Source: Candidatus Micrarchaeota archaeon
GTDB lineage: Archaea > Micrarchaeota > Micrarchaeia > Norongarragalinales > SBBD01
Assembly (NCBI GenBank): GCA_038046605.1
Contig: JBBSVW010000090.1
Span: 1 to 16,819, forward strand
Direction: 5' to 3'
DNA: 16,819 nucleotides
The notes beneath the pieces were generated by a model. It had not been told where the DNA came from, made no database searches, and was given only the letters and a program-made list of their open reading frames with translations. Shown here piece after piece: positions 1 through 14,829 of this stretch. The translations under genes and the position numbers were made by a program. Numbering within the stretch: the stretch's first letter is position 1; the number at the start of each line of letters is the position of its first letter.

Positions 1-691
1 TAAGATCGACCACGAATTCGGGGATTGCTATCCCCAAAGAGAGTATGGTAAAGCCCATGATGATGGGGTTTATCTTGAAATCCTTGACAATTGCTATCGC
101 AGAATCCACTATGAAATTTGAAGCCAGGTAAGCAATTGCCAGGAGCAGGAGCATTTGGCCAAGGGCCGCCCAAAGGCTCCTGACCTTAAGGCCTTGCATG
201 AAAACGGCATGCGTAGTTTCCTCCTCGCGCTTTGCAAGCGCCTCCTGCTCCTTGATGTTGTAAATGTACATCAGGTAAACAACCATTAGAAGCAGGCCCT
301 CGATTGCCGAGAGCTTTCCATCAAATAATAGGAAGAAGGGGATTGCCAATACAAAAAATAGCCAGCCGAAATTCTCAATGATGGTCGTTTCCCTGACCTG
401 GAAATTGCCCTTGATTATTGTGACAAGACCAAGGACCAGGCATATGACGATGATGTTTGCGCCAAGAAGGGTTGAGATCATAAGCTCAGCTTGCTGCTGC
501 GATGCCGCCTGCGTGCTGACAAAAAGGTCCGGAAGGGATGTGCCAAGCCCCAATACTACAAAGCTTAAAAGGAATTTTGGCAGCCTTAACCTGGTGGATA
601 TTCCCGTAAGCAGATTGACGACCCTATTGCTCGTTGCGCCCAGTATGATAAGGGAAATGAGAAGGGTGGTAACGCTTGCCGTAAATCCCAT
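1..691 (-). CDS. Ca2+/cation (Na+/Ca2+) antiporter, CaCA/YrbG family; 3' end runs off the window
   Basis: Not in the ORF track because there is no stop in the window. Hand translation from ATG 691 gives MGFTASVTTLLISLIILG...VVLGLGTSLPDLFVS...LLGANII...LSLGIAIPEFVVDL, with many TM segments plus alpha-1 (GTSLPD...GAN) and alpha-2 (GIAIPE) repeats. GGAG SD lies upstream. Confidence 0.88.
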   Translation of the reverse strand, partial: MGFTASVTTLLISLIILGATSNRVVNLLTGISTRLRLPKFLLSFVVLGLGTSLPDLFVSTQAASQQQAELMISTLLGANIIVICLVLGLVTIIKGNFQVRETTIIENFGWLFFVLAIPFFLLFDGKLSAIEGLLLMVVYLMYIYNIKEQEALAKREEETTHAVFMQGLKVRSLWAALGQMLLLLAIAYLASNFIVDSAIAIVKDFKINPIIMGFTILSLGIAIPEFVVDL

Positions 692-845
692 TTTATATCT
701 CCTGCGAATGTGGCTAGGTAAGCAAAGCCCGCGGTAGTTTAAAATTATAACCATTTTGCGGGGATGGCTTTTTCCAATGGGGGATTGCAACTGCCTAGGG
801 GGGAATGACAGGCAAATAAGCTTTAAACCGCCCAGTTATCCATTG

Positions 846-857
846 ACCCAATTGGGT
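846..857. promoter_or_regulatory. Perfect 12-bp palindrome ACCCAATTGGGT in a divergent intergenic region; possible operator
   Basis: The sequence is self-complementary and lies between divergently transcribed genes. Function is inferred. Confidence 0.3.
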
Positions 858-872
858 TTTACCTTGAAGTGC

Positions 873-914
873 AATAATTGTTCCGAATCGAATAATAGTT
901 CCGATTCGAATACG
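873..914. repeat. 18-bp imperfect tandem repeat, 2 copies plus a partial third, directly upstream of a TATA-like box
   Basis: AATAATTGTTCCGAATCG (873-890), AATAATAGTTCCGATTCG (891-908), AATAC. The two full copies differ at 2 positions. Confidence 0.7.
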
Positions 915-922
915 TTTAAATA
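915..922 (+). promoter_or_regulatory. Putative archaeal TATA box (TTTAAATA) for the 974 gene
   Basis: Matches TTTAWATA about 50 nt upstream of ATG 974. GAGGT SD at 962-966. Confidence 0.5.
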
Positions 923-973
923 GCTTATTTCCGTTTAATTACCAAACGCAAAACTCATTCTGAGGTAGATTAT

Positions 974-1375
974 ATGGGCATATTCGATTTGTTTGGATCC
1001 AAAGAAGTACCACTTGACAAAATGTTCACTTTGCACACCGAATTCCACCCCTTCAAGCTGGCGGCAAACCATGCCGATTCAGTTGATTTGGAAATCAAAT
1101 TGACCAACAATTTGGACAAGGAAGTGCTCACATCAGTCGTGGTGCAGGTTCCCAAGCCGTTGGGGCTGGATAAAAGCGCATTCATGCAGCAGCGGGAATT
1201 ACGGCTAGGCGCCCTCCAGGCGCATGAGACTAAAGATGTAAAGGTGCAGATTTATTCCGGCCAGCGCGTGCAGAAGGGCACGTATCCGGTCATGATTTAT
1301 GCGATCTCCCATTACCGCGACTACAGCTACATCCTGAATGAGATGAGGAAAAAAATGGAGCTTAGGGTCGTATAG
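974..1375 (+). CDS. Hypothetical protein, probable Ig-like beta-sandwich (CARDB/COG1470-like)
   Basis: 133 aa with GAGGT SD. Alternating beta pattern plus LEIKLTN, LGALQAHETKDVKVQI and GTYPVMI segments typical of Ig-like domains. Confidence 0.65.
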   Translation: MGIFDLFGSKEVPLDKMFTLHTEFHPFKLAANHADSVDLEIKLTNNLDKEVLTSVVVQVPKPLGLDKSAFMQQRELRLGALQAHETKDVKVQIYSGQRVQKGTYPVMIYAISHYRDYSYILNEMRKKMELRVV

Positions 1376-1376
1376 T

Positions 1377-1757
1377 TTATTTTATCTCCGCCAATTTTTC
1401 AAGGATTAGCTGCTGCCACCTTGGGGAAAACGCCGTCCGCTGCTTTGGCATCCTCGGAGTGTCCCAAACCTTCATCGCATTCCAATAGCCGGGATCGTGG
1501 CAAAGCGCCCGATCGACAAGTGCCATAAGGCGGACATCACTAAGCCCATTGGCCCTGCCCGGAACTGCCAGGCGTTTTGAAAGACTGCCCATAATTTCCC
1601 TTGGGTGCTTGATTGAGGGCACAATTAGGGAATGCCGGAATAACAGGTTTATTTTTTCAACGTATTTTGGGGGGACGCCGTGCCTATTTGCCTCCTCCAA
1701 AAGGCTCGCGCTCAAAGATTTATGCACAACATCCCAGGAGGGCAATTCCTCTGCCAT
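1377..1757 (-). CDS. Hypothetical protein
   Basis: 126-aa ATG ORF that starts 10 nt after the PRC-barrel gene and ends 1 nt from the convergent gene. No recognisable motif. Confidence 0.6.
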   Translation of the reverse strand: MAEELPSWDVVHKSLSASLLEEANRHGVPPKYVEKINLLFRHSLIVPSIKHPREIMGSLSKRLAVPGRANGLSDVRLMALVDRALCHDPGYWNAMKVWDTPRMPKQRTAFSPRWQQLILEKLAEIK

Positions 1758-1767
1758 AAGAATTAGC

Positions 1768-2091
1768 TTACTTCCTGTACCTATACGAATAGGGCATCGG
1801 CTTTTCCGGCGCCGCGGGCTTATCTTCCTCTAAATCCGAAGCCGATGGCATTGCATTGGAAGTGGTAACAATAATGATCTTCTCAACCGCCTTCACGGAG
1901 CGGTACATGATGGTCTTGTCACGGAAAACCCGCTTTGCCTCGTCCTTGGAAGCAACCTTGATTGGCTCAAGCGTTAGGCGCACAACCTCCCCCTTCTGGA
2001 GGTCCAAAATCACATCATAGACCTTTCCAACGAACTGCGCGTTGTCCGTGTAAATATCCATTCCAATCAGTTGAGAGAGCTTTACTGTCAT
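1768..2091 (-). CDS. PRC-barrel domain protein (archaeal CdpB-like)
   Basis: LSQLIGMDIYTDNAQFVGKVYDVILDLQKGEVVRL is the PRC-barrel signature. ATG 2091 is preceded by an AGGTGG SD; the track start at 2100 lies in the SD. Confidence 0.88.
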   Translation of the reverse strand: MTVKLSQLIGMDIYTDNAQFVGKVYDVILDLQKGEVVRLTLEPIKVASKDEAKRVFRDKTIMYRSVKAVEKIIIVTTSNAMPSASDLEEDKPAAPEKPMPYSYRYRK

Positions 2092-2513
2092 TTTTACCAC
2101 CTAGGAAGCGTAATTATGTTATCTGTACCAATAACATATTTAAAAAGGTATTCTCGATGCCCCTTGAGGTAAATTAGCAAACGCTGCTGGAAATGCGGGG
2201 GAAAATAATTGCCGGATTGCACCCCCTCTATTTTTAATAATTCCAAACCAAATCATTGAGTTTATGCGATTGTGTTTCAGTGGCAGAATTCTAGCTTCCC
2301 ATTGAGCCAATTTCTTTCCCATTGATCGAAAATGGTTCAGCAAAAAGCTGGAGACCCGGGTCCGATGCACTAAAGCGACTTCGCTGCAAAAGAAAACTAT
2401 TATTGATTCGCAAATCATAAGCGTTTCTTGGCGGCGGAGCCGTTCGCCACCTTCTTTTTGAAAGAAGGGGGCAAGGCGTGGAAATCCCGGCAATCGCACT
2501 TTTTTGTGGTAGA

Positions 2514-2813
2514 ATGGATGAAATTGAGGAAAGGCTCCATAAGCTCCTTCGCACGCAGATATCCTCAGAGCTGGATAGGATGGATAAGCCCTCCGATGCG
2601 AATATGCTTATCCACAAGGACACCGGGGTTAGGGAAATCCACATACCCACTAAAGCATGGCAAAAAGAGGAGGTTAGGGATCTGATCCAAAGCGTCACCC
2701 GCTGGTGGATTTCAAGCAGCAGGGGGAGGATGCTTGCAATAAGGAAACTGCCATCGAAGGGGGCGATCAAATTCTTTATCCATAGGAATGAGCATGATTT
2801 GCCCGAGGAGTAA
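2514..2813 (+). CDS. Hypothetical protein
   Basis: ORF from ATG 2514 (MDEIEERL...) with a GTGGT SD-like element, co-oriented with rpoK. No motif. Confidence 0.55.
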   Translation: MDEIEERLHKLLRTQISSELDRMDKPSDANMLIHKDTGVREIHIPTKAWQKEEVRDLIQSVTRWWISSSRGRMLAIRKLPSKGAIKFFIHRNEHDLPEE

Positions 2814-2891
2814 CCTTTAAAAATAAGCTTTTGGATAAAGAATGACGCATTTTTACTAGTTATACGTGTGCGTGAAGCAGGTGTGGAGGTT

Positions 2892-3086
2892 ATGGCAAAG
2901 CAAGAAAAGATCATCCTAACGAAATATGAAAAGGCAAGGCTAATTGGCGCAAGGGCCTTGCAGCTTGCAATGGGCGCACCATGCCTTGTAAAATCCCATA
3001 AGGGAGTTTTCAATGCGGTGAAGCTCGCATTATTTGAACTCGAAAAAGACGCCCTTCCCTTGCAGGTTGTAAGGCAGGGCCTATAA
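2892..3086 (+). CDS. rpoK: DNA-directed RNA polymerase subunit K (Rpo6)
   Basis: LTKYEKARLIGARALQLAMGAP signature. GGAGGT SD before ATG 2892. Confidence 0.97.
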   Translation: MAKQEKIILTKYEKARLIGARALQLAMGAPCLVKSHKGVFNAVKLALFELEKDALPLQVVRQGL

Positions 3087-3096
3087 GGTGCTAAAT

Positions 3097-3366
3097 ATGG
3101 AAATCAAGGTACAAAAGGACGAAGACGATTATCTCGAAGTCATGCTAGTAGGCGAGGATGTTGGCTTCACCAACCTGATTGCCGAAAAATTGCTCGAAAG
3201 CAAGGGAGTCGAATTTGCCGCAAGCGCATATGAGCATCCACTGCGGGGAAACCCAATTCTTAGGATAAAGGCCAAATCGCCCCACAAGGAATTGAAAACG
3301 GCGCTTAAGGAAGTTATAAGTTCCCTGGACGATTTTGAAAAGGCGCTTAAGAAGGAATTGAAGTAA
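3097..3366 (+). CDS. rpoL: DNA-directed RNA polymerase subunit L (Rpo11)
   Basis: GEDVGFTNLIAEKL...VEFAASAYEHPL...PILRIK matches the RpoL/RPB11 pattern. AAGGTG SD. Confidence 0.93.
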   Translation: MEIKVQKDEDDYLEVMLVGEDVGFTNLIAEKLLESKGVEFAASAYEHPLRGNPILRIKAKSPHKELKTALKEVISSLDDFEKALKKELK

Positions 3367-3419
3367 CTCCATTTGATAAATATTTTATTAGACCCTTAGA
3401 TTGATCTCTTTTACCCTAA

Positions 3420-4265
3420 CTAAACTATTTCGTGGGGCAAATTTACTTCCTTCAAAATTGAAATCAATTTATCCCTAGTCGCCGCATTCATGCTCTTCTT
3501 CTCTATCAACGCTACCTCCAGCTTTTCCGCGCTCTTTTCCATCGCCTGCTTCACGATTTCCGGAGTTACCTCATCCAGATTGTGCTTTGAGCACACGTAA
3601 GCGAACTCGTAATTTTGTTCCAGCATCAATCTGGAGAATTTAGAGCAATAATGCGTTCCCCCAAAGCCGATTGCGGTTTTAGCTTCTGGACTAGCCTTTT
3701 GCCCCTTTTTCCATTTATTGCAAACTTCCATAATGCAATCGGAAAACAGGTCTCCGGCTACTTCATTTGCGAACTCCTTATCCGTACTGCCAATTTCCAC
3801 GAAAAGGATTGGCGCTTTGAGGGGCGTTGGTCCGTGGTGGGTTGCCTCCATTGAAAACGGGAAACCCTCAAGCGGATGGGAAGATAGGTAATTGGAAGCA
3901 ATTTTCAGAGCTGATGCGGATGAATGCGCCAACTCATTGGGATTACCGCCCAATTTGTTTCCAGCTCCGAAATTGCCGCACGTGTGCGCCGTCACCGCCG
4001 GAGAATTGGTTTCGCTCTTATGGGTTGATGCAACAATCAGGAGGTCGGCATCATTGAACAGAGGATAATCCTTCAAATAATCCGAAAAAATGTGCAAGGT
4101 GGTTAGTTCGACGAGCTTCAATCCGTTTTTTTCCCAGCTGCGCCATTCGTATTTCCCATCTCCACTCTTTATATGGGGCTTTTCCAAAAAGCCATGCTTT
4201 CCAATAAGGGATTTTGCAATCGTCTCCCCGGCAAGGTTCCCTTTGCTGAATGCAATAAGAGGCAT
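3420..4265 (-). CDS. dtdA: D-aminoacyl-tRNA deacylase (archaeal DTD2/DtdA)
   Basis: Motifs STHKS, HTCGNFG, EATHHGP, FVEIGST and GFGGTHY. The start is most likely ATG 4265 (MPLIAFS), because the track's upstream extension overlaps E1. Confidence 0.95.
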   Translation of the reverse strand: MPLIAFSKGNLAGETIAKSLIGKHGFLEKPHIKSGDGKYEWRSWEKNGLKLVELTTLHIFSDYLKDYPLFNDADLLIVASTHKSETNSPAVTAHTCGNFGAGNKLGGNPNELAHSSASALKIASNYLSSHPLEGFPFSMEATHHGPTPLKAPILFVEIGSTDKEFANEVAGDLFSDCIMEVCNKWKKGQKASPEAKTAIGFGGTHYCSKFSRLMLEQNYEFAYVCSKHNLDEVTPEIVKQAMEKSAEKLEVALIEKKSMNAATRDKLISILKEVNLPHEIV

Positions 4266-4316
4266 GGAATAATTGAAATGGGAGAGATTAAAAAATTCCA
4301 GCGCTTGCATATTTCC

Positions 4317-5087
4317 ATGGAAATCGACTCCGATCCATTCGATAGGCAAAAACGGATACCAAGCTGGGAGCAGGGGCCAATCACGGATGCAAATGTGCTT
4401 GTGGTGGGTGCTGGCGCCCTTGGGAACGAAGTTGTGAAATCGCTTTGCCAATTAGGTGTTGGCAAGATCACGCTTGTTGATTACGATATTGTAGTTAAGG
4501 CTAATTTGAACCGCTGCTTATTTTTCACGCCGGAAGATGCAGAAAACAAGATGCTAAAGGCGGAAGCTATTGCCGAAAGGGCACAAAAGCAATATCCCGA
4601 AACTAAAATTTCATACATAATCCGGAAAGTGGAGGAGCTGAAGGAGGAATTCTATTCCGAATTCGATTGCGCATTTTCCTGTCTTGACAATTTGAATGCC
4701 AGATTGCATTTGAATGCGCAATGCTATGGCAAAATCCCCCTAATTGACGGCGGCACAACCGGCTTTTTGGGCAAAGTGCAAGTTGTCAAATCCCCCTCCA
4801 GCTGCATCGAATGCGCGATGAGCAAAAATGACTACAAGCTTTTGTGGCAAAAATACAGCTGCGTCGGGGAGGTGCTGGATTTCATCGATCCCAAGATGCC
4901 GGCTCTCTCAACAACCAACAGCATCATCGCAGCCCTGCAGGTAAATGAATTTCTTAAATTGAGAATGGATTCCCTGAAAAACGAAAACAACCTGGTCGGG
5001 AAATACCTGCTTTTTGACGGGAGGAAAAACGGCTTCCGGATTTTCGAGGTTCAAAAGAGGAAGGAGTGCCCGGTGCATTTATTATGA
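4317..5087 (+). CDS. Ubiquitin-activating enzyme E1-like (ThiF/UBA fold, UBA3-like)
   Basis: VLVVGAGALG nucleotide-binding motif, DYD..V..NLNR, CLDN..AR, PLIDGGTTGFLG, CIEC and C-terminal CPVH zinc ligands, and a candidate catalytic Cys in KYSCVG (codon 4860-4862). Start is 4317 or 4278. Confidence 0.93.
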   Translation: MEIDSDPFDRQKRIPSWEQGPITDANVLVVGAGALGNEVVKSLCQLGVGKITLVDYDIVVKANLNRCLFFTPEDAENKMLKAEAIAERAQKQYPETKISYIIRKVEELKEEFYSEFDCAFSCLDNLNARLHLNAQCYGKIPLIDGGTTGFLGKVQVVKSPSSCIECAMSKNDYKLLWQKYSCVGEVLDFIDPKMPALSTTNSIIAALQVNEFLKLRMDSLKNENNLVGKYLLFDGRKNGFRIFEVQKRKECPVHLL

Positions 5088-5962
5088 AAATACTCGCAAT
5101 TTCAGACCTAGGAAGCTGGGAAGGTTTAAAATCTATATTCGATAAGACAAAACCCGATGTGGTGGCACTCGCTGGCGATTTAATATCAGACGGTTTTGCT
5201 GAATTTCGGGCAAGTGTATTCGAGAAAATTCCGAAATTCAAACAAGAGAGAAAAATACTCATGAAAAGATTCGGAGTTACGCTCTCAAAAACCGGTTCTT
5301 ACTGTCTTAATGGCAATAACTTTAGTGTATGGGCTGACGCACTTGATTCACTAGAAGATAAATATGAAGCAAGCTCGGAGTTTGAAAAAATTAGGAAAAC
5401 TATTCATACAGATAAGTTTTACGATTTTCTAAGATATGCTGGAAAAAAATCATCGGTTATTGTTGTTAAAGGCGATCACGATGAAGATTTTAAAAATGAA
5501 TACAATTTAGAATTAATTAACAGCATCCGAAAGTGCGCGGAAATTTCAGGGAAATTATTGAATATCGATGGAATGAATTTCTTAGGCTTAGGCTTTAACG
5601 AAACACACTACTTTCGAGTTCTTCGACCTTTAGTAAAAAAATACCAAAATAAGGTAGACGTTCTTGTAACTCATGCTGAACAGGAAAGAATGCCCATTTT
5701 AAGCCAATTTAGCCCAAAATTAATCATTCGGGGACATTTTGGCTCTGGAAAATACTACGTGAACAATATTCCGTCTGTCTTCACAGCTGATGCTTATTAC
5801 TCAACTATTAATATTGGCTTCAATGGAATTATCGATATTATCCAATATGCCAAAAACCATGATAAGAAAATAACTATTTTAGAAAAAGGAAGCTGCGCTC
5901 CTTGGTTTTCTAACAAATCTGAATTCGAAATATATAGTTGGCTTAAACCATATTCAGAATGA
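5084..5962 (+). CDS. Calcineurin-like metallophosphoesterase with degenerate motifs
   Basis: MKILAISD, PDVVALAGDL, VKGDHD, LVTH and IIRGH. The start overlaps the E1 stop (ATGA at 5084-5087). Confidence 0.85.
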   Translation: MKILAISDLGSWEGLKSIFDKTKPDVVALAGDLISDGFAEFRASVFEKIPKFKQERKILMKRFGVTLSKTGSYCLNGNNFSVWADALDSLEDKYEASSEFEKIRKTIHTDKFYDFLRYAGKKSSVIVVKGDHDEDFKNEYNLELINSIRKCAEISGKLLNIDGMNFLGLGFNETHYFRVLRPLVKKYQNKVDVLVTHAEQERMPILSQFSPKLIIRGHFGSGKYYVNNIPSVFTADAYYSTINIGFNGIIDIIQYAKNHDKKITILEKGSCAPWFSNKSEFEIYSWLKPYSE

Positions 5963-7048
5963 GATATCCGTTATCTGCTTGAATGCCTCCTCGACCTTGA
6001 AATCGCCCATTGCCCCCCCGCCGCCAAGCCTTCTTCCGCAGCGCACGCATTTGGTATCGCCCGAAATTATCGCTTCAAAGCAATCCTTATGGTAAGGGGC
6101 GCCGCAAAAGCAATGGCCGTACTTTGGGTTGTGCTCTTCTTGCTTGACGGAAATCATGAATCCGGTTTTGCATAGCTCGCATTTCTCATCGTTTGAGGAG
6201 ATTTCGGCTGCTTTGGATGACATTTCTGAAATTGCCCGATTGTAAAAAGGCTTAGCAATGTCTGAATTGGGCTTGGAAGCATTTTTGGATGGGGAATTTC
6301 GTTTTTCTGAATTTGGCGATTGCTTATCAATGGTATCATCTGCTTTTGCATCAAAATCCTTCCCATCTTTTTTGACTATATGCCGCTCAACGAAGGGCGA
6401 AGTTTTCTTCAAGAGGCGCTTTTGCTCATCAGTTGGACCAAACCTTCGCATGAGGTCCATTATGTCAATTGTTTCTTCCGAACGCTTCTCCTCCGGAAGC
6501 TCCTGTATCTGCACATGGCGCTGCTCTATTGCCTTCCAGAGGATTTCAACAGGCAGTTTTGCCTGGATTGTATGGGAAAAATCAATAGGCTTGTTATCGG
6601 TTGGGTGTTGGTTTTGGCTATCAATAGCCGATACAGCCCCATTCCCCTCAGGTTTAGCCTTAATTTTTTTCTCCTTCCTCCCAAGCCATGCATCGGCAGC
6701 TTTTTTCCATTTCTCAGAATAATCATTGACACCCTTCATGCTAAGGAAAATGGATTTGGAATCGCCGGAAAATGAGATGTAGCCGCCCTCGCCAAGGGAT
6801 TTGAGCCTTTCGAGGAATTCTGCTTCACCGACATTGAAAATGGCGCGCATTTCGGAAGCATCGCTTTTACCCTCCTTCAATAATTGCAATAGGATGAAAT
6901 CGAACTTCTCCAGCCTAAGCTTTGGCCCTGCCTTCAATGGCACGGCTATTGCCCGCTTTTTCCTTGGGCCTTTTTGCTTCTTTTCGGGTATTCGCGCATC
7001 TATTGCCGGCTCCATTTCCACAATGATCCTCTCCTGGATTTCGTCCAT
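5954..7048 (-). CDS. Winged-helix + C-terminal C4HC3 RING-type zinc finger protein; putative E3 ligase
   Basis: wHTH-like segment LEKFDFILLQLLKEG...LERLKSLGEGGYI...LSMKG (about 6720-6920), a low-complexity linker, then C-x2-C-x19-C-x-C-x4-H-x2-C-x10-C-x2-C (6038-6181). The CGAPYHKDC core resembles prokaryotic RING family 1. ATG 7048; GTG 7057 is an alternative. Confidence 0.75.
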   Translation of the reverse strand: MDEIQERIIVEMEPAIDARIPEKKQKGPRKKRAIAVPLKAGPKLRLEKFDFILLQLLKEGKSDASEMRAIFNVGEAEFLERLKSLGEGGYISFSGDSKSIFLSMKGVNDYSEKWKKAADAWLGRKEKKIKAKPEGNGAVSAIDSQNQHPTDNKPIDFSHTIQAKLPVEILWKAIEQRHVQIQELPEEKRSEETIDIMDLMRRFGPTDEQKRLLKKTSPFVERHIVKKDGKDFDAKADDTIDKQSPNSEKRNSPSKNASKPNSDIAKPFYNRAISEMSSKAAEISSNDEKCELCKTGFMISVKQEEHNPKYGHCFCGAPYHKDCFEAIISGDTKCVRCGRRLGGGGAMGDFKVEEAFKQITDISF

Positions 7049-7140
7049 AACAACCACAATTGCGGATTGTGAAAGGCATTTACGAACGAATCAATTTCCA
7101 TTATTCATGTTTTAGACAAATTTTCTAATTCCACTTGGTT

Positions 7141-7623
7141 TTACTTCTTATCAATAACAGCAAAGCTTACCTCATAATAAGCATTTCCCTCAACACGAAA
7201 AATCCGCTCCTGCATCCTGCCGCCCTCCTTTTTCAGGGGATCAACCACCATTGCAATATTGAAGGGAGCGGAAAAATACTTGTTTTGCGTTGCAACATCG
7301 GTTGCCGAAAGCCAGCAGCCGTACGATGGGTGCGAATGGATCCAGCCAACTATCAGCTTCTTTTCCTTGAAATGCTTGCTGAAAGCCTGTGTGAGCTCTG
7401 CGAATGCCAATTTGTTGAATTTGACAGAAACCGCAGTTGAGCTGTTGCTGGCGGTTATGAAATGATCCACCACCACATATTCAAATCCCTTCCATTGGAA
7501 AATATCCCCCACCAGCAGCCCCAGCGCCTCTTTTCCATGCCTTGCGGCATCCTCCATGATCCGCTCCGCCTTTTGAAGGGCCGGATTTGAGATGTAAACA
7601 TCAAATGGATGCAAAGAATCCAT
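7141..7623 (-). CDS. JAB1/MPN+ (JAMM) metalloprotease, Rpn11/CSN5-like
   Basis: EALGLLVG...IVGWIHSHPSYGCWLSATD...AMVVDP gives the full E...HSH-x7-S-x2-D JAMM motif. GGTGA SD before ATG 7623. Confidence 0.95.
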   Translation of the reverse strand: MDSLHPFDVYISNPALQKAERIMEDAARHGKEALGLLVGDIFQWKGFEYVVVDHFITASNSSTAVSVKFNKLAFAELTQAFSKHFKEKKLIVGWIHSHPSYGCWLSATDVATQNKYFSAPFNIAMVVDPLKKEGGRMQERIFRVEGNAYYEVSFAVIDKK

Positions 7624-7701
7624 GGAGTTCACCAAAATTAAATGAATAAAGACTAGGGGGAAAAGGGCTAAAACGCATCAACCAAACATATTCCAAATCG
7701 C

Positions 7702-8037
7702 CTAGTCCAAACCAATTATTTTCTTTATCTTTTTCCCTAAATCATGCCTTTTCTTGCGATCCTCAGTGATGCGCTTTTGGAGCTCGCCATGCTCAAGCGG
7801 GGGCGAAACCGGGGTTATATCCGAAAGCATGTCCTCCCGCAGGCGGTCCCTTGCCGTATCAACTGATTCGTACCGCTCAATTTTGCGCTTTCCAAGGATC
7901 AGATTGTCGGGCTCGTCGTTTTCAAGGAGCATGGAATAGTCCCGCTCCTCAACAACTTTTGGCTTTTTGGATGCGCTGTGCTTTTTTTCCTCAATGTGCT
8001 TCTTTTCCCTAACTTCGACAACACGCGGCTTGCCCAT
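7702..8037 (-). CDS. Hypothetical charged protein in the ubiquitin locus, with two KP[KR]VV motifs
   Basis: ATG 8037 with GGGGGAG SD. Sequence begins MGKPRVVEVREKK...SKKPKVVEE. Co-oriented with JAB and RING. Confidence 0.7.
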   Translation of the reverse strand: MGKPRVVEVREKKHIEEKKHSASKKPKVVEERDYSMLLENDEPDNLILGKRKIERYESVDTARDRLREDMLSDITPVSPPLEHGELQKRITEDRKKRHDLGKKIKKIIGLD

Positions 8038-8148
8038 AACACTCCCCCATATTGTTTGCCCAATTTGCAACAAAAAAGCTTAAGGGGCGAAGGCATTAAT
8101 ATACTTTCTAGCGTCATCTAATTAACCTAAAAAAACTGGGTGACCCAC
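8038..8148. promoter_or_regulatory. Divergent promoter region for the JAB/RING arm and the Ubl/E2/nurA arm
   Basis: 111-bp AT-rich gap between divergent genes. ATTAATATA TATA-like element near 8095-8103; GGGTGA SD at 8138-8143. Confidence 0.45.
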
Positions 8149-8391
8149 ATGGCAGAATTCAACATTACGGTTTCGCACACAACAAGCGGGAAGGAGACGG
8201 TTCTTGCAGTTGAGCCCGAATTCACGGTTTCTTCCGTGCTTGAGGTTTTGACGGAATCACTCCAGCTAAAGGACCGCTTTGTTTTGGCAACGGAGGACAA
8301 TAAAATCCTCAATCCGGAGACCTCGCTTCTGGAGGCTGGAATAAAGGAGAACGATACGCTATTGCTGATGCCCGACCCGACGGGGGGATAG
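8149..8391 (+). CDS. Ubiquitin-like protein (beta-grasp), 80 aa, ending in Gly-Gly
   Basis: TTSGKETVLAVEPEFTV resembles ubiquitin TLTGKTITLEVEPSDTI. KILNPETSLLEAGIKENDTLLLMPDPTGG* resembles [35 protein letters not shown] SD. Confidence 0.92.
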   Translation: MAEFNITVSHTTSGKETVLAVEPEFTVSSVLEVLTESLQLKDRFVLATEDNKILNPETSLLEAGIKENDTLLLMPDPTGG

Positions 8392-8393
8392 GC

Positions 8394-8765
8394 ATGCCCG
8401 AAAGGAATGAGAAAAGGGGAAAGGTTCCGCAGGTTAATGCAGGCGAAGGCGAGCATAAACTTGTTGAATTTATTCGCGCCACCAATTTGCAAGCGCCAAG
8501 CAATAGTGGAAAGCACTTAATCCGGGGCTATATGACGGGAAACAAGCTTTGGCTGCAAGCCCAGGGCGGAATAGATAATGCGCTCGAACAAAAGCTTAGG
8601 GAACTGGGAATAGAGCACACAAAGCACCGGATTTCGATACCACATACCCCAAGGGCATTTTCTATTGATGAGACCCATCTTACCGGCGATTTATTCCGTA
8701 GGATCAAGCTTTATTTCGATGCCCATAAGGAGGCACATATTGTGTTTTCGGCCGATCAACAATAG
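8394..8765 (+). CDS. Hypothetical protein between Ubl and E2
   Basis: 123-aa ATG ORF starting 2 nt after the Ubl stop. No recognisable family. Confidence 0.7.
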   Translation: MPERNEKRGKVPQVNAGEGEHKLVEFIRATNLQAPSNSGKHLIRGYMTGNKLWLQAQGGIDNALEQKLRELGIEHTKHRISIPHTPRAFSIDETHLTGDLFRRIKLYFDAHKEAHIVFSADQQ

Positions 8766-8868
8766 CAAATGAGTGCCCAACCAGGGACGCATTTGACTCG
8801 CAACACCCGAAGCCATCCGTGCTGGCATTAATATTCCTTGCCCATCAATTTTACTTACGTGAAAAAAT

Positions 8869-9357
8869 ATGCCCCAGCTTCCGGATGCGGTGTTCCAAAG
8901 AAGGCTTTCAGCTGAGTTTGATGGCATGCAAAAGGCTGGCTTTCGGTTCAGCGCCGACCCCTCAAAAATCAGCTACGAAGTCGAATTGAAGGCAAAGGCT
9001 TTGCAACGGATTGGAAGCTCAATTTCAGTTCGAAACAACCACAAATTCAGGATTTCGTTAAAGCGCTCATACCCCTATGCCGGCGGCTTTGATGTTGTCT
9101 GGCTAACACCTATTTTCCACCCTAACATCAATGACAAGGATGGGAAGGTATGCATCCATATCCTGACCGATTGGGCAGCCTCGCAAACGCTTGCGGGCTT
9201 AGTCAAGGGCATCGAGCACATGCTGACACACCCAAATGTTAAGAGCCCCCTCAATGTGGATGCCGGCGAATACTTCTATTTCCACCCCGAACTGATTGAT
9301 AATAAGTTCGACAATTTGGAAAAAACAAGCAAACCAAAAATTGTTTTGCAGAAATGA
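8869..9357 (+). CDS. Ubiquitin-conjugating enzyme E2 (UBC fold)
   Basis: RRLSAEF N-terminal helix, YPY, TPIFHPNI...GKVCIHIL..W (H84-P85-N86, catalytic C95 at codon 9151-9153), and L.HPN..SPLN..A. Confidence 0.95.
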   Translation: MPQLPDAVFQRRLSAEFDGMQKAGFRFSADPSKISYEVELKAKALQRIGSSISVRNNHKFRISLKRSYPYAGGFDVVWLTPIFHPNINDKDGKVCIHILTDWAASQTLAGLVKGIEHMLTHPNVKSPLNVDAGEYFYFHPELIDNKFDNLEKTSKPKIVLQK

Positions 9358-9389
9358 TTGTGATTTCAAACAACAAGTGAGCAAAAACC

Positions 9390-9509
9390 ATGGTTCTTGC
9401 AAAAAAGCCCAAAATAGTTTCAATCAAGGAAAGGAAGAGCAAGGAAAAAGAGCCGCCAAGCCATAAGACGCATAAATTTGTCCACACATACATGCCAAAA
9501 AAAGAGTAG
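9390..9509 (+). CDS. Unannotated 39-aa basic micro-protein MVLAKKPKIVSIKERKSKEKEPPSHKTHKFVHTYMPKKE
   Basis: Hand translation from ATG 9390 to TAG 9507-9509. It fills the E2-nurA gap on the same strand with a weak AGTGAG SD. Its N-terminus resembles that of the 8037 protein. Confidence 0.6.
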   Translation: MVLAKKPKIVSIKERKSKEKEPPSHKTHKFVHTYMPKKE

Positions 9510-9588
9510 GAATTGAATCATCATATGATTTGGCAAAATGGATCGGCATCCATCCCCTTTTTCAACCCAAAACCAGCACGATAAAGTT

Positions 9589-10662
9589 ATGATCAACGAA
9601 TCCGCAATCAAAAACGCTGTTGAGCAGATCCAGGCAGGCGAGAGCGCGCAAAAACGCATCGCGGAAAAAATGCGTGCGGAAAAGGGGGAAATAGCCTTTA
9701 GGGAATCACTAGAGAAAAAGCTGATCAATGAAATTCCGGATATCGAAGTAAATGGGAAAGTTGCCGCAGTCGATGGGGGCCTTCTTGCCGAGGAGCTGCA
9801 TTCAATTGACATCGTCTTGGTGAGGGCTGCCGCCGTGATTTTCGAATATGAAAACTCCAAACTCAAAAAGCACCACTACCACCCTTCGTCATTCCCGGAT
9901 TACGAGGTTTACACCCCATCGGCACTGGACGCCCACGAGGCGATTTGGTTTAGGAATATTGCGCGTCTGGAAAAGGAAATCAGCTGCGCAATCGAGGCAA
10001 TTGAAAAATACGCCCCAAAAGCGCTTTTCCTGGACGGCTCGATTGTGCCGCAGGTATCGGATAAGCCCGCCAAGGAATCTGAAATTTACCCCCACTATGA
10101 GAATCTAGTGGAAAAATACAAGAAACTCTTTTCAATTTCGGAAAAAAGCAATTGCCTGCTTGTGGGCATAATCAAGGACTCAAGGGGAAAGCAGTTCCTC
10201 AATTTGGCGCAGAGGCATTTGGGGCTTGGGGTAGCGGATGATATGGTTTTGAAGAAAACAAATGATTCGGCTTTCCTGTTCAATTTGCTAAATGAAAAGG
10301 AGCGGACGTTTGCATTCAAGTATGCAAGCATAACAGAGCACCCAATCCTTAGGGATTTGCACGAATACGCAGACCGGATTTCCTCATTCTACCTAAAAGC
10401 CGTGAAATACGATAGGCCCCTTCGGATTGATTTCCTGCTTCCGGAGGGCGATGGCAAGCGAATTGAGGAGACCGCATCCTTAATCTACTCATTAAGCAAG
10501 CACAACTCACAATATGCTTATCCGGCAATCCTAATTGAAGCTGATTTGAGGGCGGCAATGGACCCAAAGGAGCTTGAAATTGTGTATGGAAGGATATTCT
10601 CATCGCTCGGTAGGCAATCCAGCATATTCAAATTGAGAAGGAATACAAGGCCGTTCAGGTAG
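9589..10662 (+). CDS. nurA: NurA 5'-3' DNA double-strand-break repair nuclease
   Basis: AAVDGG, FLDGS, GIIKDS and YPAILIEADLRA motifs. Start is ATG 9589 or 9538. Confidence 0.92.
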   Translation: MINESAIKNAVEQIQAGESAQKRIAEKMRAEKGEIAFRESLEKKLINEIPDIEVNGKVAAVDGGLLAEELHSIDIVLVRAAAVIFEYENSKLKKHHYHPSSFPDYEVYTPSALDAHEAIWFRNIARLEKEISCAIEAIEKYAPKALFLDGSIVPQVSDKPAKESEIYPHYENLVEKYKKLFSISEKSNCLLVGIIKDSRGKQFLNLAQRHLGLGVADDMVLKKTNDSAFLFNLLNEKERTFAFKYASITEHPILRDLHEYADRISSFYLKAVKYDRPLRIDFLLPEGDGKRIEETASLIYSLSKHNSQYAYPAILIEADLRAAMDPKELEIVYGRIFSSLGRQSSIFKLRRNTRPFR

Positions 10663-10664
10663 AT

Positions 10665-10685
10665 AGGAAAAATAAAAAGGAAAAC
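10665..10685 (-). terminator. Oligo-T archaeal terminator-like tract after the PEGA gene
   Basis: The minus strand reads GTTTTCCTTTTTATTTTTCCT just after the stop. Confidence 0.45.
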
Positions 10686-10690
10686 GGCAC

Positions 10691-11452
10691 CTATTCAATC
10701 GTAGTATTTGTCGAATTTGTGGTTAGGTTAGACGAAATATAGGTCGTTTGGCCGGATGTTATTGAAAACATCTGGAAATCCGGATTATAACCAGTCTTGC
10801 GGAATTCAAGGACATAGCTATTTGGATATAGGGAAAGCGTCAAGGGCGAAACGCCCCTAAATGGGTATGGGTACGACGAACCCGATATTCCAACGTAAAC
10901 ATTAGCTCCTGATGGCGTTGTCCCCGCCATTAATGTTCCATTTGCCGGCGGCACGGATGGTGAGGGGGTTGGTGTGCTCGCATTTACCGTAGGCGTTGGC
11001 GATGATGCATTGACAGTAGGTGTTGGTGAGGTCGCATTAACAGTCGGATAAACGCTTGGAGATGGCGTAGTCGCATTTACTGTCGGAGTTGGGGACGATG
11101 CGTTTATGGTTGGTGTGGGCGAAGTTGCGTTCACTGTGGGGATAATGGTCGGGGTTGGAGTTAACGAAACAGTTGCCCACGGCGTTGCTGTTGAATTAGC
11201 CTTTTTAACGCACGTGAGTGCATCCCCGCACGAATAACCGGTTGGACAGCCGCATTTTAGGCAATTTTGTACGGTAAAGCCACCCTGGCAATAATATGGT
11301 TTTGTTGCAAGGCATTGCCCATTTTGGCTAGCTGAACATTTTAATGGCCCGATTGCCTCGCCGACCGGTGAGGACAGGCTAGGAACAACATAAAATAGAA
11401 TTACGCCAAGAATAACAAGCGCCGCAATACCATACAGAATCTTATTGTCCAT
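10691..11452 (-). CDS. Membrane-anchored or secreted surface glycoprotein: TM helix, Cys-rich domain, Pro/Thr-rich repeats, PEGA domain
   Basis: N-terminal ILYGIAALVILGVILFYVV helix, an 8-Cys segment, PTVNATSPT repeats, and a PEGA-like C-terminus GTL...TTPSGANVYV...G.SPL.....PNSYVLEFRKTGY. ATG 11452; 11464 is an alternative. Confidence 0.85.
   Translation of the reverse strand: MDNKILYGIAALVILGVILFYVVPSLSSPVGEAIGPLKCSASQNGQCLATKPYYCQGGFTVQNCLKCGCPTGYSCGDALTCVKKANSTATPWATVSLTPTPTIIPTVNATSPTPTINASSPTPTVNATTPSPSVYPTVNATSPTPTVNASSPTPTVNASTPTPSPSVPPANGTLMAGTTPSGANVYVGISGSSYPYPFRGVSPLTLSLYPNSYVLEFRKTGYNPDFQMFSITSGQTTYISSNLTTNSTNTTIE
10967..11140 (-). repeat. Intragenic 27-bp / 9-aa tandem repeats PT[VI]NA[TS][ST]P[TS], 6 copies
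   Basis: PTVNATSPT PTINASSPT PTVNATTPS (PSVY) PTVNATSPT PTVNASSPT PTVNASTPT, with synonymous DNA divergence between copies. Confidence 0.85.
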
Positions 11453-11555
11453 TTGTACCACCATAAATTATTACGTTTAAAGAGTAAAGCAATATTTTTA
11501 AACTAATTATATCCCTATTGGGCGGAAGTGCTTGAAATATGTGGGGCAAAAATAG

Positions 11556-11933
11556 CTATTTTTGAATTAAATCATCAAATTTTATCCCCGAATTCAACTC
11601 CTTATCACTTAGGGTAAACGCCTTTTCCGTCTCCTTCATCGTGATGAGCGGAAAGAACCTCCACTCCTCGCGGCTCACCTTCCAGGCGATGTAAAAAGGG
11701 ATAGCCGTGCGGGCTTCGAATTCCTTCATCGCAGCCATCCGGTCCTTTTCGATCCAAAGGTTCCCGGAATTCCAAGCCTTGCATTCTATTGCAAATTTCT
11801 TGGTGGAACTAAGAACAATCAGATCCGGAGAAGTTGAATCGTGAGCGCTCCCTGCTGCGCGCACAACGAAAAAACCCCTCCCCTCGAACATCTTCTTTAG
11901 CTGGCGTTCGTAGTTGGCGCCCTTTGTGGACAT
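11556..11933 (-). CDS. hjc: Holliday junction resolvase Hjc
   Basis: KGANYERQL...GFFVVRAAGS....PDLI.......AIECK is the Hjc PD-(D/E)xK signature. Confidence 0.95.
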   Translation of the reverse strand: MSTKGANYERQLKKMFEGRGFFVVRAAGSAHDSTSPDLIVLSSTKKFAIECKAWNSGNLWIEKDRMAAMKEFEARTAIPFYIAWKVSREEWRFFPLITMKETEKAFTLSDKELNSGIKFDDLIQK

Positions 11934-11980
11934 GTTTTAAATCAGGCTAAGGAGTAATAATAAGCAAACGGGAGGATACG

Positions 11981-12754
11981 ATGGCAATGAAAAAAGGGCT
12001 CATACAACAATACGGGATCACGGGAAAATTCAAGGGATGGCATACCGCAGGGCAGGCACTTGTAGATTTGAAAGGATACCATCCGGAGCTTCCACATTCC
12101 CTAAATGTCCTAAGGGAGCACTTACCTATGTTATGGCCCAAACATTTTGAAATAACAAAGGGGAAAAAAAGGCTTAATTTGTTCAGACCGCTGACCATGC
12201 AGGAAGCATCGGATGTAGCCGCTAAAATCAAGGCAGCGATCCCATATGGCGGCAGCACAAATTTGCCAAAGGATGAACGGGTTTTCCTAAACAGGAACGA
12301 TTTGCTTCAATCCGTTTACGATATTGCTGGCCAAATAGGTGAAATCGAACCTAGCGAGCTAAAAAGAAGGCAGAGGGATGCAGGCTTGGCGATAGCAAAA
12401 AAGAAGGCGGGAAAAATACCTTCAACTCCGGATTACTATTCAGCAGCAACTGATGTCCGCCCCAAATTGGTGTTTGAGGAAGATTTGAAAAATGCGCATT
12501 ACCTGCACTTGAAGCCAAATGGGCTCACAGGAAGGGAAGCCGAAATATACCTGCTTTCAAGAATTCCAAGGCACGATTTCACGCCGGTAGAAATTGCCAA
12601 ACATTTTGGCGTAAGCCCGCAGCACATAAGACAAACAATTCGGGAAGTCGATGAAAGGATAAATGGACCGTTGCGAAGGCAGGAGAGGGAAATTAGGGAA
12701 AAAATGGAAAGGGAATTCAGGGATAGGGAAATGCGCACAAGGAAAGCGGCATGA
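11981..12754 (+). CDS. Hypothetical protein with C-terminal sigma70-region-4/LuxR-like HTH
   Basis: GLTGREAEIYLLS....FTPVEIAKHFGVSPQHIRQTIREV. GGAGG SD. N-terminal 180 aa not recognised. Confidence 0.7.
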   Translation: MAMKKGLIQQYGITGKFKGWHTAGQALVDLKGYHPELPHSLNVLREHLPMLWPKHFEITKGKKRLNLFRPLTMQEASDVAAKIKAAIPYGGSTNLPKDERVFLNRNDLLQSVYDIAGQIGEIEPSELKRRQRDAGLAIAKKKAGKIPSTPDYYSAATDVRPKLVFEEDLKNAHYLHLKPNGLTGREAEIYLLSRIPRHDFTPVEIAKHFGVSPQHIRQTIREVDERINGPLRRQEREIREKMEREFRDREMRTRKAA

Positions 12755-12784
12755 TAATGATAGGATTGATTTGGCGGAGCATAT

Positions 12785-12901
12785 ATGAAAAACAAGAAAT
12801 TTACATTCAAGGACCACAAGGCCGACACGATTGACACCGCCAGGGGGCTAAGCCCCCTACGCGTGTCGCCCCTACCCCCTTATTTTGAGGAGCTAATATG
12901 A
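12785..12901 (+). pseudogene. Duplicated, diverged 5' fragment of archease (38-aa ORF) interrupted by a GC-rich hairpin
   Basis: MKNKKFTFKDHKAD versus archease MKSKRFIFKDHKAD (11/14 identical), each preceded by GGAGC. The ORF ends at an ATGA overlap with the archease start. Confidence 0.7.
12833..12873. repeat. GC-rich inverted repeat / REP-like element
   Basis: AGGGGGC-TAA-GCCCCCT perfect stem (12842-12858), extended by GACAC/GTGTC (12833-12867). The minus strand reads GTAGGGGCGACAC. Confidence 0.6.
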
Positions 12902-13326
12902 AAAGCAAGAGATTCATTTTTAAAGATCATAAAGCGGACATGTTCATAGAAGCCTACGGCAAAAGCTATCCGGAGGCATTGGAAAATTGCGCCGCGGGCC
13001 TATTTGAAACGATTTGCGATGCCTCCAAATTGAAGGAAAGGAAGAAACTCTTGGTGAAGGAAAAAGCATCCACACTTGAGCAGCTCACAACTTTCCTCCT
13101 TAATAAAATCGTTTCCGAGGGGGACGCTAGGGAAATGATGTACAAGCGCATGAAGGTAATTAAATTCGAGGAAAAGAAAGGGATGTATTCCGTGAAAGCG
13201 CAGGTTTTTGGCCAGGAAGCGGTGCACAAACTTGGGCGAATGTATGTGAAGGCGGTAACGCACCATGAAGCAACGGTTGAAAAGAAGGGAAAAAATTGGC
13301 TCATTAGGGTATTGCCGGATATTTGA
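12898..13326 (+). CDS. Archease (RtcB tRNA-ligase cofactor)
   Basis: DHKAD (for DHTAD), IEAYGKS...ALEN.A.GLF, VKAVTHH and a terminal DI. GAGGAG SD. Confidence 0.93.
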   Translation: MKSKRFIFKDHKADMFIEAYGKSYPEALENCAAGLFETICDASKLKERKKLLVKEKASTLEQLTTFLLNKIVSEGDAREMMYKRMKVIKFEEKKGMYSVKAQVFGQEAVHKLGRMYVKAVTHHEATVEKKGKNWLIRVLPDI

Positions 13327-13327
13327 G

Positions 13328-13951: not shown

Positions 13952-14071
13952 TTATAAATTCAAAATTGGCAAATGCGAAATGTCAAAGTTTTTTACTAAT
14001 GCCCACCTAAGCTTTAAATAAAAATTTGCTATTACGAATTGAAACAATACCAATTATCGCTAGAGCTAGGA

Positions 14072-14093
14072 TTGAAAAAATAAAGGAAAAAAG
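14072..14093 (-). terminator. Oligo-T terminator-like tract after uS7
   Basis: The minus strand reads CTTTTTTCCTTTATTTTTTCAA just after the stop. The neighbouring gene bud32 is convergent. Confidence 0.55.
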
Positions 14094-14097
14094 CGCC

Positions 14098-14703: not shown

Positions 14704-14829
14704 AATGTTTTCACCAACAATTTCTTCCATGATGGAAAATTCCAAATATTTCCCAAAGAGTGAAAGCTTCCAAAAGCCAATTTCCCTAATTTTCCAATAA
14801 ATTTTTCCCAAAAAGGGAAAAGAAAAAAT

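Follow-up and report, generated by a model that had tools for sequence, protein, structure and literature searches.

Descriptions of RING E3s from the ubiquitin operons of archaea concern tiny, free-standing fingers of Aigarchaeota and Asgard archaea (PMC5654768; PMC6043591), and the parts of Fuchs et al. 2018 (PMC6043591) that treat them credit such ligases to Caldiarchaeum and Asgard operons only. In Caldiarchaeum subterraneum, the archaeal RING-type E3 srfp is encoded with ubiquitin, an E1, an E2, and an Rpn11/JAMM protease (PMC5654768). According to the sections of Hennell James et al. 2017 (PMC5654768) that deal with it, srfp is experimentally active, its residues I30, W58, and R69 are needed for activity, and the loop-4 Pro-Tyr of the Caldiarchaeum E2 is needed as well. 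Here, we analyze a gene from Candidatus Micrarchaeota archaeon (Norongarragalinales; SBBD01), located at positions 5954 to 7048 on the minus strand of contig JBBSVW010000090.1 (GCA_038046605.1), of which we examined positions 1 to 16,819; this whole stretch of 16,819 nucleotides is referred to as the window. The gene product, a protein without earlier annotation, joins a winged helix-turn-helix (wHTH) domain of DNA-binding type to a RING-like zinc finger, and we call it the wHTH-RING protein.

On balance, and by somewhat better than even chances, we favor reading the wHTH-RING protein as the RING-type E3 of a compact, eukaryote-like system built on a ubiquitin-like modifier (Ubl), with a winged helix that most likely acts on nucleic acid. 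We consider it likely that the protein is an E3 of its Ubl system, and it is probably the sole one. We take the E3 reading to be well supported because the operon, the co-occurrence with the E2, the failure to find any other RING, the RING-nearest profiles, the contact residues, and a complex model that passes narrowly all agree with it.

The gene runs from the ATG at 7048 to the stop codon at 5954 to 5956 and encodes 364 amino acids. The open reading frame (ORF) extends to an upstream GTG (5954 to 7057, minus strand, 367 amino acids); we delimit the coding sequence at the ATG because the N-termini of relatives coincide with it (MDEIQE...) and because a 100%-identical database protein has 364 amino acids. 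A first-pass annotation of this DNA, made from sequence alone, had placed the element at 5954 to 7048, and these coordinates proved to be those of the minus-strand coding sequence from ATG to stop. A plus-strand reading of the same interval was dropped, as that strand has stops throughout and no open frame. Residue numbers given here follow the 367-residue GTG frame; those of the ATG frame are lower by 3.

A word-indexed search returned 44 relatives, all labeled 'hypothetical protein' and all from Micrarchaeota or Norongarragalinales metagenome-assembled genomes (MAGs) wherever the source was named. In species-representative genomes we located 44 loci, all in Micrarchaeota records, and an intact zinc domain is encoded in each of them (44/44). 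We then searched a zinc-domain profile (45 sequences, 85 positions) against 1.84 billion representative proteins. Seventy-two proteins matched at E<1e-10, and beyond a gap there were just two weak matches at 2-3e-4, so the family is, as judged by profile search, sharply bounded. Of these two, the only full-length one is a zinc-ribbon repeat protein with no relation to the family, and the other, a fragment of 35 residues, matches the C-terminal profile of the wHTH-RING family itself. Of 103 family proteins, 93 have the winged helix together with the zinc domain; among the 10 without a winged-helix match, nine are no longer than 223 amino acids, and the tenth has a divergent helix-turn-helix by eye. 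At the level of loci, the winged helix is present in 42 of 44, the other two being cut by contig ends, and by these matches the fusion is fixed across the family. The invariant columns of a 25-sequence alignment are F52, G63, D198, and the core of the zinc domain, including its eight ligands and G314-H315, and conservation across the protein is highest in the zinc domain. Searched as a whole, the protein had no Pfam match at E<=0.1, and no family member reaches any Pfam threshold.

The genes surrounding the wHTH-RING gene encode the components of a Ubl conjugation system. Directly upstream on the minus strand lies a JAMM/JAB metalloprotease (7141 to 7635; Pfam JAB, E=2.5e-14), with the H-S-H...S-A-T-D motif visible in its translation; the two genes adjoin in 42 of the 44 loci, and the earlier statement that the element lies 'directly downstream of JAB' is correct on this strand. 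On the plus strand, a ubiquitin-like modifier starts at the ATG at 8149 and extends to 8391 (its ORF begins at a GTG at 8140), ending in ...PDPTGG followed by the stop codon. The modifier is highly conserved and was found in 39 of the 44 loci. The C-terminus is exactly GG in 31 of 38 complete copies, and short extensions follow in the other seven, in keeping with processing by the JAMM protease. The Pfam ubiquitin model gave just E=0.28 on this protein, and standard annotation would therefore miss it. Also on the plus strand are the E2 (8869 to 9357; Pfam UQ_con, E=1.8e-16), which has the UBC fold, an HPN...C95 signature, and an invariant loop-4 P69-Y70, and an E1-like adenylating enzyme of the ThiF family (4173 to 5087; Pfam ThiF, E=4.7e-47), which is convergent with the wHTH-RING gene. 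Across the 44 loci, tblastn recovered the JAB protease in 42, the E1 in 40, the Ubl in 39, the E2 in 35, and a D-aminoacyl-tRNA deacylase in 32; part of the missing partners reflects the many loci cut by contig ends. The wHTH-RING gene is thus encoded alongside a Ubl, an E1, an E2, and a JAMM protease, as are the E3s of archaeal operon-encoded ubiquitin systems.

We tallied the zinc-domain profile and the E2 profile separately in 301 sampled genomes of the phylum. Each was found in 35 of the 301 genomes, with identical tallies: all 34 sampled members of the window's order, which span 10 families, have both in one copy each, and none of the 266 genomes outside the order has either. In the window's genome, which is 90.7% complete, the gene at 8869 to 9357 is the sole E2, and we detected no other RING, as zf-RING_2 matched nothing at E<=0.1 and Prok-RING_1 gave two weak matches elsewhere. 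A search for homologues of the E2 returned Micrarchaeota proteins only. The NCBI annotation of these MAGs already names the E2 but not the wHTH-RING protein, which databases label 'hypothetical' because its finger escapes every curated RING model.

The predicted C4HC3 RING-like binuclear zinc domain extends from C293 to C340 (6038 to 6181, minus strand) and was delineated from ligand conservation, profiles, and the complex model. Its motif is C293-x2-C296-x19-C316-x-C318-x4-H323-x2-C326-x10-C337-x2-C340, exactly the spacing that the first-pass annotation had given. None of the eight putative ligands varies among 45 sequences with 36 to 90% identity to the window's domain, the only variation in the motif being the lengths of two loops (x17-23 and x10-16); given this invariance, the motif is not a chance cluster of cysteines. 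In all 45, the order and spacing of the eight Cys/His residues fit those of a binuclear cross-brace finger. H315 is probably not a ligand, because Asn replaces it in one divergent member.

Scanning each of the 45 members singly against Pfam yielded sub-threshold scores throughout, among which RING models led both in the number of members matched and in E-value: Prok-RING_1 matched 45 of 45 (best E=3.3e-4) and zf-RING_2 matched 35 of 45 (best E=1.1e-3), with further weak RING-type matches to Vps41 RING (19/45) and zf-RING-like (14/45). The window's C-terminal piece alone matched Prok-RING_1 at E=0.0047 and 17.3 bits, with approximately 12 of 54 profile positions aligned. The best solved relatives of the zinc-domain profile were RING-H2 domains, those of AMFR (E=0.012) and RCHY1 (E=0.11). 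In this alignment, H323, C326, C337, and C340 fall on ligands 5 to 8, C318 falls on the Cys of ligand 3, and residue 330 falls on the conserved Trp. The residues through which RINGs contact E2s are conserved as well, with a Leu at 295 and an Arg or Lys at 342 in all 45 members and an aliphatic residue at 330 in all but one; the basic residue stands one position late. Look-alikes in the ESM Atlas were RING clusters of Nitrososphaerota, Asgard archaea, Bacillota, and giant viruses; all of their scores were below 0.9, and we set them aside as leads only.

The E2 and the zinc domain, represented by alignments of 34 and 45 rows, respectively, were modeled in complex with two zinc ions, together with three controls. 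The model scored 0.66 compared to 0.45 for the best control, three runs agreed in 100% of contacts, and the partner had a predicted local distance difference test (pLDDT) value of at least 72. In calibration, 58 of 80 solved complexes attained the pass mark, as did 2 of 110 mismatched pairs. The interface comprises E2 residues 2 to 16 (helix 1), 69 (the invariant Pro of loop 4), and 103 to 107 (loop 7), and residues 292 to 298, 320 to 329, 333 to 334, and 338 to 339 of the finger. As modeled, the zinc domain sits on the helix-1/loop-4/loop-7 face of the E2, which is the canonical mode of RING-E2 binding. This comparison with the E2 at 8869, suggested along with the original annotation, thus came out in favor of a RING, by a narrow pass.

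The winged helix occupies residues 51 to 125 (6683 to 6907, minus strand), was delineated by AlphaFold2, Foldseek, VIA, and profiles, and includes a basic C-terminal helix (K116, K118, K119). With the family alignment, AlphaFold2 modeled residues 50 to 125 at a pLDDT of approximately 95 as helix-helix-helix-strand-strand and a further helix, giving the three-helix bundle and beta-hairpin wing of wHTH domains. All of the top Foldseek matches in the Protein Data Bank (PDB) were wHTH regulators (PadR, MotA, MarR, MexR, and ArsR-type), with E-values of 3e-3 to 4e-2; for the full model nothing matched at E<=0.001, and every weaker match was confined to the wHTH. When aligned with VIA-align against 48,161 chains, the domain matched MarR-family domains at Z 9-10 with a root-mean-square deviation of 1.6 to 2.6 A over 65 to 75 residues, and nearly all of the 50 best structural matches were DNA-binding wHTH proteins. 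A 43-sequence N-terminal profile searched against the PDB found the helix-turn-helix domains of archaeal Lrp/AsnC proteins (PH0140, E=2e-4; PH1519, E=1.5e-3; LrpA, E=3.6e-3). In Pfam, the window's own N-terminal domain matched no family at E<=1, and the 43 N-terminal domains matched scattered wHTH families (wHTH-PRTase_assc in 14, HTH_24 in 5 with a best E of 9.4e-6, and MarR_2 in 5). The N-terminal wHTH named in the first-pass annotation is therefore confirmed by the confident model and by both structural searches.

Three other matches to this region were given little weight. Ribosomal protein eS25 gave a PDB profile match of E=0.23 over the basic tail and the wHTH; this lead was dropped, as the Ribosomal_S25 model matched nothing genome-wide at E<=0.1 and eS25 was missing from the best 60 matches of the deeper N-terminal profile. 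Matches of the N-terminal profile to the ClpC N-domain and to cullin WH-B covered short stretches, none passing alone, and were treated as noise or a weak lead.

Whether this domain binds nucleic acid is evenly balanced in our judgment. A basic N-terminal tail precedes it (residues 24 to 50, PEKKQKGPRKKR...KLRLE; 6908 to 6988, minus strand), recognized by its charge and its conserved basic columns; the median net charge of this tail is +6 in 92 family proteins. Conserved basic columns lie on both flanks of the winged helix (46, 48, 51, and 54; 116, 118, 119, and 128), and the net charge of the domain itself is only about +2. Several features speak against DNA as the ligand. The wing tip (97 to 100) is acidic. 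In helix 3, position 80 is conserved as acidic, and the only basic residue conserved there is R84, a possible partner of the invariant D53. The exposed positions of helix 3, the recognition helix, vary across the family. The four intergenic regions of the operon contain no inverted repeats of at least 8 nt, with the exception of one 9-nt palindrome over the GTG at 7057. Genes for DNA repair are not conserved as neighbors: of the 44 loci, six have NurA, one has Hjc, and none has the metallophosphoesterase. For this reason, we set the DNA-repair neighborhood aside as support for DNA targeting. Judging from these sequence features, the winged helix would have non-specific nucleic-acid affinity at best and does not resemble a conserved operator-reading factor. 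The proposal that this protein brings ubiquitylation to DNA or chromatin thus divides: the E3 part agrees with the genomic context and the modeling, and the DNA-targeting part is plausible only, since the basic flanks and the DNA-binding nearest folds are set against an acidic wing and a variable helix 3.

Cores resembling AT-hooks (RGRP or RGRKP) occur in the basic tail ahead of the winged helix in some distant relatives (L021, L028, L036, P0020, P0044, P0084, P0087, and P0090), a point in favor of nucleic-acid binding. The idea of an AT-hook was given up, as canonical-like cores are found in just 8 of 92 relatives and the window's protein has GPRKKR instead.

The alternative that survives best is unlikely in our estimation: a RING E3 whose winged helix binds protein rather than nucleic acid, serving as a substrate receptor, a dimeriser, or a docking site in the manner of the winged helices of cullin WH-B, ESCRT-II, and Nse1. 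The acidic wing tip, the scarcity of conserved basic residues in helix 3, and the low charge of the domain would all suit such a role, and the conserved small charged protein of the operon (described below) could be the partner. In addition, the N-terminal profile has partial matches to cullin-4 WH-B at E=6e-4 to 3e-3, none of which passes alone, and Cullin_Nedd8 matches 2 of 43 members. However, the cullin matches are short, at about 30 residues, whereas the best full-domain matches in both sequence and structure are DNA-binding Lrp/AsnC and MarR regulators, and the Lys/Arg clusters on both flanks are conserved.

We regard as improbable the alternative that the zinc domain is another binuclear finger (a PHD-like reader, a C1-like finger, or a Ubl-binding finger) and the protein a receptor or regulator of the Ubl system. 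The C4HC3 order resembles that of PHD fingers, as does the x4 before the His, which is longer than the RING consensus; the usual RING spacing between ligands 4 and 5 is x2-3. Weak matches were also seen to Rubicon-homology (34/45), C1 (C1_1, 26/45), and NSD-type PHD variants (4-6/45). Other observations likewise count against a RING. No Pfam RING model reaches its gathering score in any of the 45 members, the window's best being 17.3 bits compared to 29.1 for Prok-RING_1. An invariant Ala320 takes the position of the ligand-4 His of RING-H2 domains, with C316-x-C318 shifted two residues upstream, and Gly341 occupies the linchpin position, the basic R/K342 following one step later. AlphaFold2 was unsure of the zinc domain, with a pLDDT of 49 to 74 in the whole protein and 48 for the domain alone (45-row alignment); because of this low confidence, the choice between a RING and another binuclear finger rests on sequence and the complex model. 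That model passed narrowly, at +0.21 where +0.20 was required, and the zinc domain scored 0.45 against an unrelated protein; a textbook pair such as RING-E2 can pass by likeness to solved complexes, and the job used custom alignments and a riding ligand, unlike the calibration. On the other side, the PHD model PF00628 had no match in the ORF at E<=1 and RING models lead in count and E-value, the PDB matches are RING-H2 domains, the canonical E2-contact hydrophobics are conserved, the modeled domain lies on the canonical E2 face, and the operon would be without an E3 if the wHTH-RING protein were not one.

Still less probable is a sequence-specific transcription factor, such as an autoregulator of the Ubl operon, with a zinc domain for dimerisation or sensing. 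The wHTH is closest to those of Lrp/AsnC and MarR transcription factors and the gene stands beside a divergent promoter region, but the intergenic regions lack palindromes apart from the one over the GTG, exposed recognition-helix positions vary in an order-wide single-copy family, and the most conserved part of the protein is its RING-like zinc domain, with perfect co-occurrence with the E2. We give almost no credence to true homology with eukaryotic Nse1 (a KITE winged helix plus a variant RING, working with an SMC-kleisin complex), which would account for the same domain order, the same C4HC3 ligand order, and the sub-threshold zf-RING-like (PF08746) matches in 14 of 45 members (best E=2.8e-3), but SMC_Nse1 (PF07574) has no match in the ORF at E<=1 in a whole-genome scan, PF08746 reaches 12.8 bits (E=0.3) against a cut-off of 26.6 with three unrelated places in the genome scoring alike, the AlphaFold2 model has one winged helix and not a tandem pair, the 50 best structural matches include no Nse1/KITE chain, and the neighbors in the 44 loci are Ubl, E2, JAB, E1, and D-aminoacyl-tRNA deacylase with no SMC or kleisin. 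Of the Nse1-like architecture that had been proposed, the domain order holds and the homology finds no support, and the caveat attached to that proposal, that the similarity may be convergent, is the better reading.

We therefore return to an E3 whose winged helix most likely acts on nucleic acid. This joint reading is graded above nucleic-acid binding taken by itself because its wording allows nucleic acid to be the most likely ligand of the winged helix.

The interval between the winged helix and the zinc domain (about residues 126 to 285) had been annotated as a long charged linker, and this is accurate for part of it; the rest is a conserved helical stretch with a motif. The conserved helical middle region spans residues 160 to 226 (6380 to 6580, minus strand), as defined by AlphaFold2, the alignment, and hidden Markov model matches, and residues 170 to 226 were modeled at a pLDDT of approximately 80. 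Within it, the 25-sequence alignment reveals the motif [ILV]-D-L-x-[DE]-L-x-x-K-Y-G-P (D198 to P208; 6434 to 6466, minus strand), in which D198 is invariant and P208 is at least 90% conserved. Hidden Markov model matches to the middle region are found in most family members, and a regular expression for the motif matches 43 to 52 of 81 family proteins. After the zinc domain, the model and the alignment define a conserved C-terminal helix at residues 352 to 367 (5957 to 6004, minus strand), modeled over 352 to 366, with E356 and A358 at least 90% conserved.

The pattern hydrophobic-[FY]-X describes the C-terminal end of 27 of 45 relatives. In the majority, this end is small-hydrophobic-Phe-Asp/Glu, and the window's protein ends in I-S-F (5957 to 5965, minus strand). 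These ends recall the HbYX tails that dock into the alpha rings of 20S proteasomes. Both 20S proteasome subunits are encoded in the window's genome.

We infer a mechanism along the following lines. The ThiF-type E1 would adenylate the Ubl at its C-terminal GG and hand it to Cys95 of the single E2. The zinc domain would fold as a cross-brace RING, with C293/C296 and H323/C326 forming site 1 and C316/C318 and C337/C340 forming site 2, and would dock on the E2 at helix 1, P69-Y70 of loop 4, and loop 7, using L295, residue 330 (aliphatic), and the C337-V-R-C340 loop. Once docked, the RING would promote discharge of the Ubl onto lysines. The winged helix and its Lys/Arg-rich flanks would be the targeting module, most likely acting on non-specific DNA or chromatin, and a ligase held on nucleic acid in this way would modify nearby DNA-bound proteins. 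The middle motif and the C-terminal helix may be further sites of docking or dimerisation, and the JAMM protease would mature, remove, and recycle the Ubl. The most specific form of this proposal, a single E3 tethered to chromosomal DNA by its winged helix and basic or AT-hook-like tails and mainly tagging chromatin or DNA-repair proteins, is tentative and, in our view, rather doubtful.

The minus-strand operon that ends with the wHTH-RING gene begins with a gene for a small charged protein (7702 to 8037, probable ATG at 8037), which has no Pfam match. An iterated profile search found this protein between the Ubl and the JAB protease in 36 of 39 loci. KP[RK][IV]V motifs occur in 32 of the 36 members, with two or more copies in 18, and the same motif is found in the C-terminal tail of the E2 (9316 to 9357, plus strand) in 33 of 34 sequences, as KPKIV in the window. 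Because they share this apparent docking motif, the sequences suggest that the small charged protein and the E2 tail bind the same partner.

Other genes of the window are less constant companions of the system. A calcineurin-like metallophosphoesterase gene (5066 to 5962, plus strand) overlaps the 3' ends of the E1 and wHTH-RING genes and looks like a lineage-specific insertion, because it is found in 0 of the 44 loci and the E1 there adjoins the wHTH-RING gene. Between the Ubl and the E2 is an ORF of 123 amino acids (8394 to 8765, plus strand) with a weak, below-cut-off match to XRN_N (E=0.0024); by tblastn it is present in 1 of 44 loci (L002), and elsewhere the Ubl is followed directly by the E2. 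Directly after the E2 is a gene for a NurA-domain nuclease (9538 to 10662, plus strand), kept in 6 of the 44 loci, those of the closest relatives; in passing, we noticed no HerA beside it. The D-aminoacyl-tRNA deacylase gene (3420 to 4451, minus strand) and the E1 gene (4173 to 5087, plus strand) are divergent, with longest ORFs that overlap at their 5' ends, and the pair occurs in 32 of 44 loci. Finally, a 257-amino-acid protein (10691 to 11464, minus strand) combines a hydrophobic segment at its N-terminus with a stretch rich in Cys and many Thr/Pro/Ser repeats in which N-A-S/T sequons occur (TPTPTVNAS...), and from these features it is likely a glycosylated surface protein.

A full set of Ubl, E1, E2, candidate E3, and JAMM protease is thus kept by a whole order of DPANN archaea, several members of which are named Norongarragalinales in their record titles. 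We found no paper on a ubiquitin system in Micrarchaeota or DPANN; the supplementary 'Cluster III' of PMC5654768 may list such operons, and the word ubiquitin does not occur in the two genomics papers on Norongarragalinales. This lineage has been proposed, in the portion of PMC12892359 concerned with it, as the least host-dependent one. An E3 of the kind described here would already have the modular design of eukaryotic ligases, in which the catalytic RING is accompanied by linear motifs and by a distinct domain for targeting. As each genome has a single E2 and a single putative E3, these archaea offer an unusually simple system for asking how substrate targeting arose in ubiquitylation, and the same system could reveal whether DNA-bound proteins were among its first targets. 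If the E3 is indeed tethered to DNA, candidate targets would be histone, NurA/Mre11-type nucleases, and replication factors; one histone is encoded in the window's genome. DNA-templated ubiquitylation has been regarded as a eukaryotic invention, and a tethered archaeal E3 would be a precedent for it as well as a minimal system for reconstitution.

Among eukaryotic proteins, Nse1 of the SMC5/6 complex has winged-helix structure followed by a C-terminal C4HC3 RING-like finger, and the likeness to the wHTH-RING protein is in this domain order alone: the archaeal protein has one winged helix rather than two, and its operon partners are Ubl genes rather than SMC5/6. Eukaryotic RING E3s with DNA-binding modules of their own include Rad18, with a SAP domain, and UHRF1, with an SRA domain. 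The wHTH-RING protein may share their general design, in which a RING is joined to a nucleic-acid-binding module that confines conjugation to DNA-bound substrates, but the DNA-binding folds are unlike, no homology is implied, and DNA binding by the wHTH-RING protein is putative. Among prokaryotic regulators, Lrp/AsnC and MarR-type proteins supply the closest profiles and the closest structures (Z 9-10) to residues 47 to 120; their effector or dimerisation domains are absent from the wHTH-RING protein, which instead has an acidic wing, a weakly conserved recognition helix, and the RING fusion.

Among zinc-finger families, Prok-RING_1 (PF14446) scores best for all 45 members and aligns on the C-G-A-x-Y-H-x-x-C core. 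Every score is below the gathering cut-off, so the resemblance to the prokaryotic RING-1 core that had been pointed out earlier holds, whereas membership by the Pfam rule does not. By the rules of Pfam, the protein belongs to none of Prok-RING_1, zf-RING_2, PHD, and Nse1.

The closest counterpart in genomic setting is srfp. As reported in the parts of PMC5654768 that describe its structure, the hydrophobic residues with which srfp contacts the E2 follow ligand 1 and lie in the central helix, its last ligand is followed by a basic residue, and its third and fourth ligands lie two residues out of register, as they do in the wHTH-RING finger. I30, W58, and R69 of srfp correspond to L295, residue 330, and R/K342 of the wHTH-RING protein, and the loop-4 Pro-Tyr of the Caldiarchaeum E2 (PMC5654768) corresponds to P69-Y70 of the window's E2. 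A direct sequence link to srfp does not emerge, because the zinc-domain profile found no relative outside the family among the 1.84 billion representatives. The differences are substantial: srfp is a small stand-alone RING-H2 protein (C3H2C3), whereas the wHTH-RING protein has 364 amino acids and a C4HC3 finger and so departs from the small single-domain RING-H2 form of the Caldiarchaeum and Asgard E3s. The winged helix, the basic tails, and the conserved middle motif are found only in the wHTH-RING protein, and its lineage is Micrarchaeota, within DPANN. By analogy, the wHTH-RING protein would act in the manner of the RING E3s encoded by Caldiarchaeum and Asgard operons, and its ligand type, its size, and its dedicated targeting domain would set it apart from them.

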